From NCBI RefSeq assembly GCF_003790525.1, contig NZ_CP033635.1: 64,000 nt of DNA. The stretch is one strand, 5' to 3'. Made by a program: the position numbers. The DNA is from Escherichia coli. Its GTDB lineage: Bacteria > Pseudomonadota > Gammaproteobacteria > Enterobacterales > Enterobacteriaceae. Of this stretch, positions 50,828 to 53,800 are shown in pieces. Positions within the stretch are counted from its first letter, which is position 1. The number at the start of each line of letters is the position of its first letter.

Positions 50828-53800
50828 TCACTGGATTCCCGGTATGAGTAACTTTTATTAACGATAAGCCAGGCTATTTGTGCATTGGTGTTGAGGTGAG
50901 AATAGCACCAGTCAGGTGAGCAGATTATAATGTTACGAGACTTAAGCACCTCTGTAGCTCCCATGGTCTGATAGTTTCTCCCGTATACCGCTCATGCAAC
51001 TCCCGCATTAAAATATACTGTTCCTTCCGGATAATTACGTTAAAATATACACCTGCGTGCATCTGTGTCAGACTCCGTTAGATACCAGCGTACATTGTAA
51101 ACATGCCGGATGCACGCAATACAATAATCGGTCTTTTCGGAGTTATAGTCACCAGGCTGGCATCCCGTAAATATGTATCAGGTAGCAATTCAGGAAGCGA
51201 ACAAAAGCGCCTGGAGAAGGTTATCTCTGATAATAATTTACATGAAATGTCTCCTTTATTCTTCGCGAATAAGGCCTTCAGTGTTCTCCCCTTTTCAGCA
51301 ATTCTTACCGTAGTAATCACTCCTGCCTGTGTATAACACGAGAATTGCCAGAGTTTAACGTTTCGGTATCGTTATCCTGCATGATGTTGAACAGAACCGG
51401 GCGTGAATTCTGCGCCAGAATTTTCTTTCGAGGAACATTCCGGGTTATCTGTAGTACAGGAGGAGATTTTCTCCTATTTCAAATAAAATTCAATGACAGG
51501 TGAATATTTAAATATAAATGCATCGCTTCAACAGAGAAATCGGAATTACGCCCGGAACCAGGCCTGAATGAATAATGGAGGAGGTAAAATAATATTATTG
51601 ATGAAAATATCAAATTAAGTCCCCCTTCTCCTTCCCCAGCTTAAATATACTTACTTTTTCACTGGATAATATGTTATTGAATTACAAAGTTGATCCTGAT
51701 ATACATGATTTCCGGCTCTTGCATCCAGTGATAACTTTATATAGTCCTGCAAAGGCGAACTTCGTAAAAGTATACTTTTCTGTTGTAAGCATTGAGGTAT
51801 CGAAAATGAGTGAGAATACCGGAAAATCCCATGAAAATAAAATGGTTATTATTGACTACGGGGAATATGATGAATACCTTCGTAACGCGTGGTTCCGAGG
51901 TTTTCGGGAAGGTTATGATATGGCGATGAAATTTGGATTAGGCTGCCAGCAATGTTATGAAACAGGTGAAAAAATAGCATGCGCAAGAGCTGAAGAATGC
52001 CGTAAAAAGATTAAGGTAATAAAACACTGAAACGGGCTGTCTGATATTTCTGTGAGCTAAAAAGACACCGTAATACAGGTATCTCACAGTAACTGAAAGA
52101 TATGCACATGCCGCCAGGGAAGATTAAGGGTAAGGGAGGATATCCCTTACCTGATTGATTATGGGATGATACCACAGGCAATTCTTGCACCACCGCCACC
52201 TAGAGGTTCAGGATGGTCATCATGATTATCACCTCCTGCGTGGAGCATTAGCGAACGGCCATCGAGCTCCTTTAATTCAGATAGTCTTGGCGCAAGCACC
52301 GGGTAGGTTGCTTTTCCGTCATGAGTGACATAAAGCGCAGGGAGATCACCTAGGTGGCCATCAGGAGACCATGGACCGAGATGCTTCCCTGTTTTTTCCG
52401 GGTCAAAGTGACCACCTGCAGATAAAGCAGCGACAGTTTTTCCATCTTTCAGGGCAGGAGCACAACTTGCGTTTTCATGTACATGAAAACCATGAATGCC
52501 GGCGGGTAAGGAGTGAAGATCAGGGGTGAACAGCAGCCCGTAGGGTGTCTTCTGGATGGTTATTTTACCAATATTTCGCTCTTTTCCGTCACTATCAACA
52601 AGATTCATTGTTACATCTTTGGTGGCTGCATATCCACAGGATGATGTAGCCAGAATCACAAAGGCAATAAGTTTACGTTTCATAAACCCTCTGTTAACAG
52701 GTTAAAGATTTACTCAATAACTGTTGCGAAATAACAGTCAGCCAGATGATAGCTTATGATAGTTATTGAATGTGACTATCAGTGTAATTAATTATGCAAA
52801 TTAGAAGGAATGTTATGTGTGAAGCGCCCCTGTATCCCGCTCATACTGGCTAACCCAGACACGCAGAGTCTGTGGCGTACAGCCAGCATTTGAGGCAATG
52901 GAACAAATTACCCCAATTGTGAATCATACTCATCCTGTTTACCTCTTTCTCAGGGAGTTTAGTCTCCAGGATTCCCGGAGCAGTTCAAAGTGCCCTGTGC
53001 TGCTTAAAGTGCCGCTGCATGCCACCACATGGCTGAGCAGCAACAGGTATTGTTGTTCCTTCATGTTGTTCACGCAACCAGCGTAATACCACCGGCGAGG
53101 ATGGACTGTCAGTGTGATTACGTTCAGTAATACGTTCATAAAAGGAAGTTCAGAATGCATGAATCTGTTGTCCGTTGATGTTTCCTTCTGTCGAATTGTG
53201 TGTGAAGTGGACAATCAGAAAATGCGGCCAGTGATCCACTGCCTGTTGAATAAAACGCCGGATGTCTCCCGGCTCTGCAAGTAATGCTTCAGTTTCCTGC
53301 ACTATTTTATCCCTGTTGAATTTTGTCAAACCGGTGCAGACACGCAGGAAAGTATGCCAGCACTGGTGTAATGCCAGTAACATACAATAAGAATGAAATG
53401 ACGAATCAGTCAGGAAAGGGTGCCCCCATTGGCAACCCATTGACTGAGCAGAGGATACAATCAGGAAGGTTAACGAGAGTATCTCCGACATCAGGGGCAG
53501 GATTGATTTCTACAATACCAGCGCCGGCATTGAGCCTGTACATAGATTTATGTAATTGCCTGATTTTGATATGTTCAATTCAACATCAAATGAAAGCTAA
53601 ATTATGGACGACACACAATTGCAGGCTCTGGCTAACGAACTGGCCAAAAATCTCAAAACCCCTGAAGATCTCAGTCAGTTCGATCGCCTGCTCAAGAAAA
53701 TAAGTGTTGAGGCAGCTCTCAACGCTGAACTGACTCACCATCTGGGACATGAAAAAAATCAGACCAAATCGGGAACCAACTTCCGTAATGGCTATTCCAC

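Follow-up and report, generated by a model that had tools for sequence, protein, structure and literature searches.

An accessory sodC gene in an E. coli island

We analysed a 64-kb stretch of Escherichia coli DNA (64,000 nucleotides (nt) of contig NZ_CP033635.1, assembly GCF_003790525.1; hereafter the window), which carries at 52159-52683, on the minus strand, a sodC gene for the 174-amino-acid (aa) precursor of a periplasmic Cu,Zn superoxide dismutase (SOD). The gene was recognized from the open reading frame (ORF) listing, by reading of the sequence, and from profile matches. Its product scored 111 bits (6e-32) against the Pfam family Sod_Cu (PF00080; cut-off 28.9) and 218 bits against the NCBIfam SodC equivalog NF007628 (cut-off 165), and PHROG 1975, 'superoxide dismutase precursor', matched it at 3e-89. 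When solved structures were searched, Salmonella SodCI came out on top (1EQW/6D52, 1e-64), followed at lower rank by SodC of Haemophilus ducreyi and Yersinia and later by E. coli SodC (1ESO). The copper ligands of the island protein are H67, H69, H92, and H148 and the zinc ligands H92, H101, H110, and D113, with H92 as the bridging residue; C74 and C170 make up the disulfide pair and R167 is the active-site arginine. All of these residues were invariant in an alignment of 46 sequences that included K-12 SodC, SodCI, and SodCIII. A preliminary description of this DNA, made from the sequence alone, had claimed an intact sodC with all metal-ligand motifs, and the profile scores and the invariant ligands bear this out: sodC is a real and intact gene.

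By inspection, the N-terminus of the precursor consists of MKRK, a hydrophobic core, and GYA|A, which is a Sec-type signal pattern, and the solved SodCI chains begin to align at residue 22-23 of island SodC. Export through the Sec pathway is predicted, with cleavage expected after G-Y-A19. Cys16 sits in the lipobox-like motif TSSC, the equivalent of which is AASC in SodC-F, the additional SodC of E. coli O157:H7. The ratio of nonsynonymous to synonymous substitution rates (dN/dS) of sodC was 0.09 against the Klebsiella homologue and 0.12 against a metagenomic homologue. Because the active site is intact and the gene is under purifying selection, the product can be predicted with high confidence to be a functional enzyme. 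RefSeq annotates a protein of identical sequence (WP_000823671.1) in other genomes and plasmids.

Relatives and distribution of island SodC

The core sodC gene was found in 5425 of 5426 complete E. coli genomes. The allele of the window was present at 99% nucleotide identity or higher in 125 complete E. coli genome records, and a group of alleles with 76% nucleotide identity to it occurred in 571 records, from O157, O111, O145, O103, and other strains. At the amino acid level, island SodC is 90.8% identical to the Klebsiella homologue, 79.9% to SodC of a Shiga toxin 2a (Stx2a) phage, 62.1% to SodCIII (Fels-1), 61.5% to SodCI (Gifsy-2), and 56.6% to the core SodC of K-12. In neighbour-joining trees of the 46 sequences, the window SodC, P0001, and the Klebsiella protein grouped together with 96% bootstrap support, and these plus the E. 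coli phage and plasmid alleles with 82%, separate from core SodC. The window sodC is thus an accessory second copy, additional to the core gene and belonging to a mobile phage/plasmid clade. The preliminary description had proposed just such an accessory gene on a chromosomal island, and had named grouping with core sodC and flanks matching the core genome as what would speak against it. Neither was found, since the protein is only distantly related to core SodC, clusters with phage and plasmid alleles, and has non-core flanks.

The gene is of a known kind. Strain SMS-3-5 carries WP_000823671.1, encoded by a sodC with 99.8% nucleotide identity to that of the window and in the same order (ibrAB-like genes-sodC-sitABCD-iutA); it is essentially undiffering from the window, apart from an extra insertion sequence (IS), IS2, upstream of sodC. 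D'Orazio et al. 2008 (PMC2569942) had already pointed out an extra sodC, resembling sodC-F, in SMS-3-5. We consider island sodC to be essentially a known gene, of low novelty. In the literature we found no paper describing its linkage to this island, or the 74-aa gene discussed below.

The 5' region and terminator of sodC

The region presumed to hold the sodC promoter and operator lies at 52684-52826 on the minus strand. We aligned it over six contexts, namely the island of the window, Klebsiella, a ~100-kb plasmid, another E. coli chromosome, the Stx2a phage, and a metagenomic contig, and observed that similarity reaches ~145 nt upstream of the sodC start codon; the Klebsiella counterpart is ~88% identical. 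An AGAGGG Shine-Dalgarno sequence precedes sodC, a perfect inverted repeat (ACTGTT-N7-AACAGT) lies upstream of the gene at 52720-52738, and AT-rich blocks further upstream are invariant across all six contexts. The inverted repeat is a candidate operator, for a regulator with a pattern other than those of Fur, LexA, FNR, and PhoP. The best Fur-box matches upstream of sodC, with 12-13 of 19 positions, are not significant because the window holds 133 such matches; CTGT and ACAG of the inverted repeat are separated by 9 nt, a spacing that does not fit a LexA box; and a pattern search upstream of sodC found neither an FNR nor a PhoP pattern.

On the other side of the gene, between sodC and the convergent 74-aa gene, a terminator scan detected a G+C-rich hairpin at 52128-52152 on both strands, which is the sodC terminator and possibly acts in both directions. 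Its stem has been preserved in Klebsiella, the Stx2a phage, and the plasmid allele through compensatory substitutions. Since the 5' blocks are conserved in six contexts and the hairpin stem is maintained by compensatory changes, 52119-52826 is an autonomous cassette of ~0.7 kb, made up of the 5' region, the ORF, and the terminator hairpin. As in moron-type cassettes, sodC travels with its own 5' region and an intrinsic terminator, the promoter being presumed from the sequence.

Contexts and movement of the sodC segment

The DNA around sodC recurs elsewhere with sharp boundaries. Positions 50225-52747 of the window were found with 99.4% identity in E. coli E16, with a LysR gene on one side and a solute-binding gene with hsdMS on the other, and positions 50225-52988 in strain 98203, between a yah-like cluster with LysR and dptFGH. 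Homology with both strains begins exactly at 50225, and with 98203 it stops at 52988; the 98203 segment has an IS5 inserted at 52011-52016 (window coordinates). A shorter piece of 813 bp (51935-52747) is present on IncF plasmids of poultry E. coli and of E. albertii, where it is bordered by an IS2 end on the left and by yacAB on the right, so that the right junction at 52747 is common to E16 and the plasmids. At 99% identity or higher, the sodC unit occurs in differing chromosomal settings of E. coli and on IncF plasmids of both species. In Klebsiella it has 85% nucleotide identity and adjoins a FecCD-type ABC transporter. Other settings were found for related sodC alleles (66-82% identity): ~100-kb ParAB plasmids, where IS3 and a NERD-UvrD helicase are the neighbours, the vicinity of a Zot/secretin filamentous-phage module, the vicinity of fimbrial genes, and a Salmonella TraX/ScsC contig. 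Our comparison shows that the so-called 'prophage' sodC genes are in truth independent cassettes which travel among phages, plasmids, and islands.

Within the window, positions 50225-50828 are perfectly duplicated in inverted orientation at 13288-13891 (604 bp), and the sequence beside this second IS copy, 13892-14319, is the LysR-side flank of the sodC segment in E16 and 98203. The duplication suggests a past rearrangement. Between the two copies lie ~36 kb of island DNA, with iha, amiC, and the ibrAB-like genes among its contents, and this stretch might still be able to invert by recombination. Positions 51060-51167 are common to plasmids of the ColV type from avian pathogenic E. coli (APEC), on which an IS1 cuts the sequence. 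On these plasmids (L021, pEND_Eco 19035-1) the context of DUF2877, ankyrin, LysR, and IS3-fragment sequences is as in the E16 and 98203 chromosomes, but is interrupted by the IS1 shortly before the small ORF and sodC would follow. This context ties the history of the segment to APEC virulence plasmids.

A 74-aa gene convergent with sodC

At 51806-52030, on the plus strand and convergent with sodC, lies an orphan gene for a 74-aa protein (RefSeq WP_001470144.1), preceded by a GAGG Shine-Dalgarno sequence. The preliminary description had reported a Cys-rich hypothetical ORF of 119 aa here, at 51671-52030. This is a mechanical ORF; RefSeq annotates the 74-aa product alone, and the 45-codon 5' extension (51671-51805) is broken by an indel and stops in the Klebsiella homologue. 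The conserved gene is that of the 74-aa product from 51806, the extension being non-conserved. The protein has four cysteines (C47, C50, C59, and C65), of which C47, C50, and C65 were invariant in a three-sequence alignment. Codon 18 is Tyr in the window and Gly in Klebsiella; in E. coli, the alleles met most often (clusters with 228 and 102 member sequences) have Cys.

Searches with the single sequence and with a profile, over 5.8 billion protein clusters and 1.84 billion representatives, placed the protein in only three lineages: E. coli, K. pneumoniae (81% aa identity), and one metagenomic enterobacterium (55% in the three-sequence alignment). The profile search added no further homologue, a scan of 100,044 species-representative genomes returned no copy of the gene, and no family match was present in Pfam, NCBIfam, or PHROGs. 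A HMMER match to a repeat protein (1.8e-6, 24% identity) was judged spurious. In each lineage a copy lies within ~0.8 kb of a sodC of this clade. The Klebsiella gene is again convergent with a 174-aa sodC. In the third lineage (L019, metagenome SRR33065492, 208-4864), where the small gene encodes 75 aa, the order is sodC on the minus strand, an IS3 fragment, the small gene and katG on the plus strand, and a grxA-like gene on the minus strand, with only the coding parts conserved; katG there has ~75% nucleotide identity to enterobacterial katG. This cluster resembles a small oxidative-stress islet. The window itself contains, at 18240-18327 near remnants of integrative and conjugative element genes, 88 nt with 77% identity to where the region of the grxA-like gene starts.

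The dN/dS of the 74-aa gene was 0.24 against Klebsiella, and against the third lineage the proportion of nonsynonymous differences (pN) in the core was 0.155, with synonymous differences (pS) saturated at 0.86. By these substitution patterns, it is a real gene under purifying selection. AlphaFold2 modelled the protein as a two-helix hairpin (helices 18-42 and 47-73; mean predicted local distance difference test (pLDDT) 77.5, core >90), in which C47-x2-C50 opens helix 2 and C65 lies further along the same helix. A Foldseek search with this model against PDB and BFVD gave no match with E <= 0.001, a helical hairpin being too generic, and a linker-tethered dimer model had low confidence (pLDDT 59.7) and was uninformative. 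The gene is not kept everywhere: on the IncF plasmids IS2 leaves only its last 95 nt while sodC is intact, the IS5 of strain 98203 sits in its 3' end, frameshifted variants exist too, and the gene is absent beside the phage and plasmid members of this SodC clade.

The island and the debris around sodC

Apart from IS differences, the window is 99.95% identical to and collinear with chromosomal islands of E. coli 24A16CRGN010 and Ch1. In Ch1, a tyrosine integrase adjoining ynjA marks the start of the island; within the 64-kb window we found no tRNA gene. The island contains iha, an amiC copy, ibrAB-like genes, and a dead group II intron, the reverse transcriptase/maturase gene of which (ltrA, 48078-49586) has an internal stop and lies just upstream of IS3 remnants; it also contains the sodC segment, sitABCD, and iucABCD-iutA. 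A major facilitator superfamily transporter, a YadA-like protein, and a CP4/P4-like module were also present, with many IS fragments in between. In near-identical islands the aerobactin operon is decaying (L001 33333-38690; L031 11521-15537) while sodC and sitABCD are intact: frameshifts affect iucD and iucC, and iucB has been either split by ISVsa5 or frameshifted.

To the left of sodC, IS3-family remnants occupy 49667-50128 and 50225-50869, and to the right truncated IS256, IS200, and IS110 genes follow from 53604 onward, in agreement with the earlier placement of sodC between an IS911-like remnant and IS256/IS200 fragments. The left arm of the recurring segment, 50225-50869 on the minus strand, is a frameshifted transposase fragment of the IS3 family (orfA end and the HTH_21 part of orfB; RefSeq; Pfam HTH_21 1e-8). 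Overlapping its inner edge, at 50807-50889 on the minus strand, is a sub-threshold Rfam match to the Salmonella island small RNA isrC (30.8 bits against a gathering threshold of 39, E = 0.0008), beyond which the Rfam scan of 50000-54000 returned nothing. Positions 50870-51805 are an AT-rich stretch with no recognizable gene, in which the ORFs had no Pfam match; the same held for the ORFs in 50710-51503, and Klebsiella homology to the window begins only at 51640. The right arm, 52827-52987 on the minus strand, is a fragment from the 5' end of an IS3-family element; compared with the same end of intact IS3-family copies in L006 and L008, its nucleotide identity is 82-95%.

Beyond the right arm, 53030-53557 on the minus strand holds what is left of two neighbouring hypothetical genes from a P4/CP4-like island module, traced by blastn, tblastn, and RefSeq, which names one of them a 'UCP030791 family putative phage-derived protein'. 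The stretch is 78% identical at the nucleotide level to plasmid CP057032, which carries both genes intact, in the neighbourhood of AlpA and inovirus-type Gp2 genes. By tblastn, 53048-53302 matches residues 1-89 of a 170-residue protein with 80% aa identity, an in-frame stop, and a 4-aa deletion, and 53381-53557 has 44% aa identity to its intact counterpart, also with a stop. What had earlier been taken for unidentifiable frameshifted remnants is thus identifiable, as the IS3-family 5' end and the pseudogenes of this module.

Alternative explanations for the sodC locus

We consider it highly probable that the locus is a self-contained mobile sodC cassette which encodes a second periplasmic Cu,Zn-SOD and was shuffled into the island by IS activity and recombination. 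The preliminary description had suggested that the gene was retained while its surroundings decayed, which, taken with its remark that accessory sodC copies in enterobacteria are usually prophage-borne, would make sodC the last surviving gene of a lambdoid prophage decayed in place, with the neighbouring ORF and the debris as phage leftovers. The closest characterized relatives of island SodC are indeed prophage genes (Stx2a, 79-80% aa identity; Fels-1 and Gifsy-2, ~60%), the protein matches PHROG 1975, and RefSeq labels an adjacent pseudogene 'putative phage-derived'. However, the sodC genes of the Stx2a phage, Gifsy-2, and Fels-1 are situated among lambdoid tail genes and encoded on the opposite strand, that of the Stx2a phage being flanked by tail-assembly and host-specificity genes, and the window sodC has no such location. 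The comparison of the flanks with prophage genes that had been proposed earlier (blastn and tblastx, 51000-53700 against the sodC region of the Stx2a phage) found no lambdoid tail-gene remnants, and the homology in these searches covered only sodC itself and ~40 nt on its 3' side; all told, what is shared with phages is sodC, its 5' region, and its terminator only. The debris matches an IS3 end and the AlpA/inovirus-Gp2 island module rather than lambdoid genes, and the pair of sodC and small ORF adjoins an ABC transporter in Klebsiella and sits in unrelated E. coli contexts as well. Decay of a prophage in place is therefore largely refuted and in our view quite improbable; an autonomous cassette that IS elements and recombination have shuffled about is the better description of the window sodC. 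Even less probable is that 50225-52988 is itself a transposable unit, i.e. an IS3-type shell or composite with sodC as cargo, moved in trans by an IS3-family transposase. Both ends of the segment are IS3-family ends in the same orientation, and the window and 98203 share both boundaries exactly. Yet the ends are fragments of two different IS3-family elements and do not form a pair of inverted repeats (matches at 9 of 45 positions), neither target-site duplications nor direct repeats were present at 50225/52988, be it in the window or in strain 98203, and E16 and the plasmids have another right junction, at 52747. The matching terminal repeats and target-site duplications of a composite transposon are thus lacking, and the left flank in E16 and 98203 is the flank of the second IS copy, which points to homologous recombination or duplication. 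Because of the non-matching ends, the lack of target-site duplications, and the duplicated IS with its LysR-side flank, we read the spread of the segment as probable IS-mediated deletion plus homologous recombination, not as transposition of a defined unit.

Equally slight is the probability that sodC is a silent relic with no current function. Its surroundings are dense with pseudogenes and IS wreckage, and no clear sigma-70 promoter was predicted, but the ORF is intact with invariant catalytic residues and a dN/dS of ~0.1, the 5' region and terminator are conserved, and the protein persists unchanged in ~125 genome records and on plasmids, even as the genes around it decay. Somewhat more room is left for the idea that sodC and the 74-aa gene form a functional module, although we regard it as doubtful. 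The small protein would then be a cytoplasmic CxxC redox- or metal-sensing regulator or helper of oxidative-stress genes. Consistent with this, it is limited to three lineages and in each lies near a sodC of this clade, the third lineage has a changed gene order followed by katG and the grxA-like gene, purifying selection acts on it with synonymous sites saturated, and the invariant cysteines stand at or near the start of helix 2. A role as a redox- or metal-responsive partner of sodC, and of katG in the third lineage, be it as a small regulator or as a cluster- or metal-binding switch, would explain why the gene is kept beside sodC across lineages with saturated synonymous sites; we put it forward tentatively, as an outside chance. 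Against it, three lineages are too few to tell function from shared ancestry of one DNA segment, so that descent and functional linkage are inseparable, and the gene is truncated, interrupted, or frameshifted in several backgrounds, with plasmid sodC remaining intact, or missing beside other alleles of the clade. Furthermore, neither a family nor a fold match gives a mechanism, and the tethered-dimer model is of low confidence. The 74-aa companion is nevertheless the only new lead at the locus.

Some observations also weigh against the mobile cassette with a functional second SOD. The sigma-70 scan of the sodC 5' region gave background level and no convincing site; the SodC trees were made by neighbour-joining and not by maximum likelihood; the wider grouping of island SodC with Salmonella SodCI and SodCIII reached just 48% bootstrap; and lipid anchoring is uncertain because island SodC has TSSC instead of the AASC of SodC-F.

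Proposed function and comparison with known SodC systems

The following is how we propose that the cassette works and came to lie where it does. A Sec-type signal peptide would export the precursor and be cut off after A19, and the mature protein would bind Cu and Zn and turn superoxide into O2 and H2O2 in the periplasm, thereby guarding the envelope against externally generated superoxide. In this lineage, the cassette would have become joined tail-to-tail to the 74-aa gene, which is predicted to encode a cytoplasmic CxxC helical hairpin. The pair lies in the 2.8-kb segment 50225-52988 bounded by IS3-family fragments, which IS activity and homologous recombination would have carried between islands and plasmids, and which presumably landed by the sitABCD and aerobactin genes in a large island of the type seen in extraintestinal pathogenic E. 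coli (ExPEC) and APEC.

The nearest characterized systems are SodC-F1/SodC-F2 of O157:H7 and the Stx2a phage sodC, which resemble the window gene in sequence (~80% aa and 76% nt identity), metal ligands, a signal peptide with Cys at a lipobox-like position, and homologous 5' region and terminator hairpin. They differ in lying inside a prophage, whereas the window copy is in an iron-uptake island, IS3-flanked and accompanied by the 74-aa gene. SodC-F1 and SodC-F2 belong to the same mobile clade as island SodC and are dimeric and resistant to protease and EDTA. SodC-F1 withstands proteinase K, is expressed in log phase and anaerobically, and had an activity of 19,380 U/mg compared with 6,290 U/mg for SodC (PMC2569942). 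With its AASC motif, SodC-F1 is partly processed by signal peptidase II and partly lipid-modified (PMC2569942). Core E. coli SodC, in contrast, is monomeric, protease- and EDTA-sensitive, and expressed only in aerobic stationary phase (PMC2569942). The core gene (b1646) shares family, ligands, and periplasmic location with island sodC and co-occurs with it; it differs in protein sequence, as noted above, and in its locus, which is fixed beside ydhF. Salmonella SodCI (Gifsy-2) and SodCIII (Fels-1) are likewise horizontally acquired periplasmic Cu,Zn-SODs, with 61-62% identity to island SodC; they differ in that their genes lie in lambdoid tail regions and, as noted, in their weakly resolved grouping. 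For SodCI itself, a role in virulence and tethering in the periplasm are established, and it too is known as a dimer that resists protease and EDTA (PMC2569942). It is from such relatives, together with the sequence, that we infer activity, dimeric state, regulation, and virulence contribution of island SodC. By analogy with SodC-F1, the protein is probably dimeric, stable, resistant to protease and EDTA, and expressed outside stationary phase, and it is possibly in part lipid-anchored. A role in resistance to the phagocyte oxidative burst may be supposed from Salmonella SodCI and O157 SodC-F.

About 2% of complete E. coli genomes have this SodC-F-like allele besides the core gene. Among the listed examples, many carriers came from chickens and some from human clinical samples, and island sodC is often physically linked to sitABCD and aerobactin genes and is sometimes located on IncF plasmids. 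If island SodC behaves like O157 SodC-F or SodCI, it would add a stable periplasmic superoxide defence to an ExPEC/APEC virulence island, of which its gene would then be a convenient marker.

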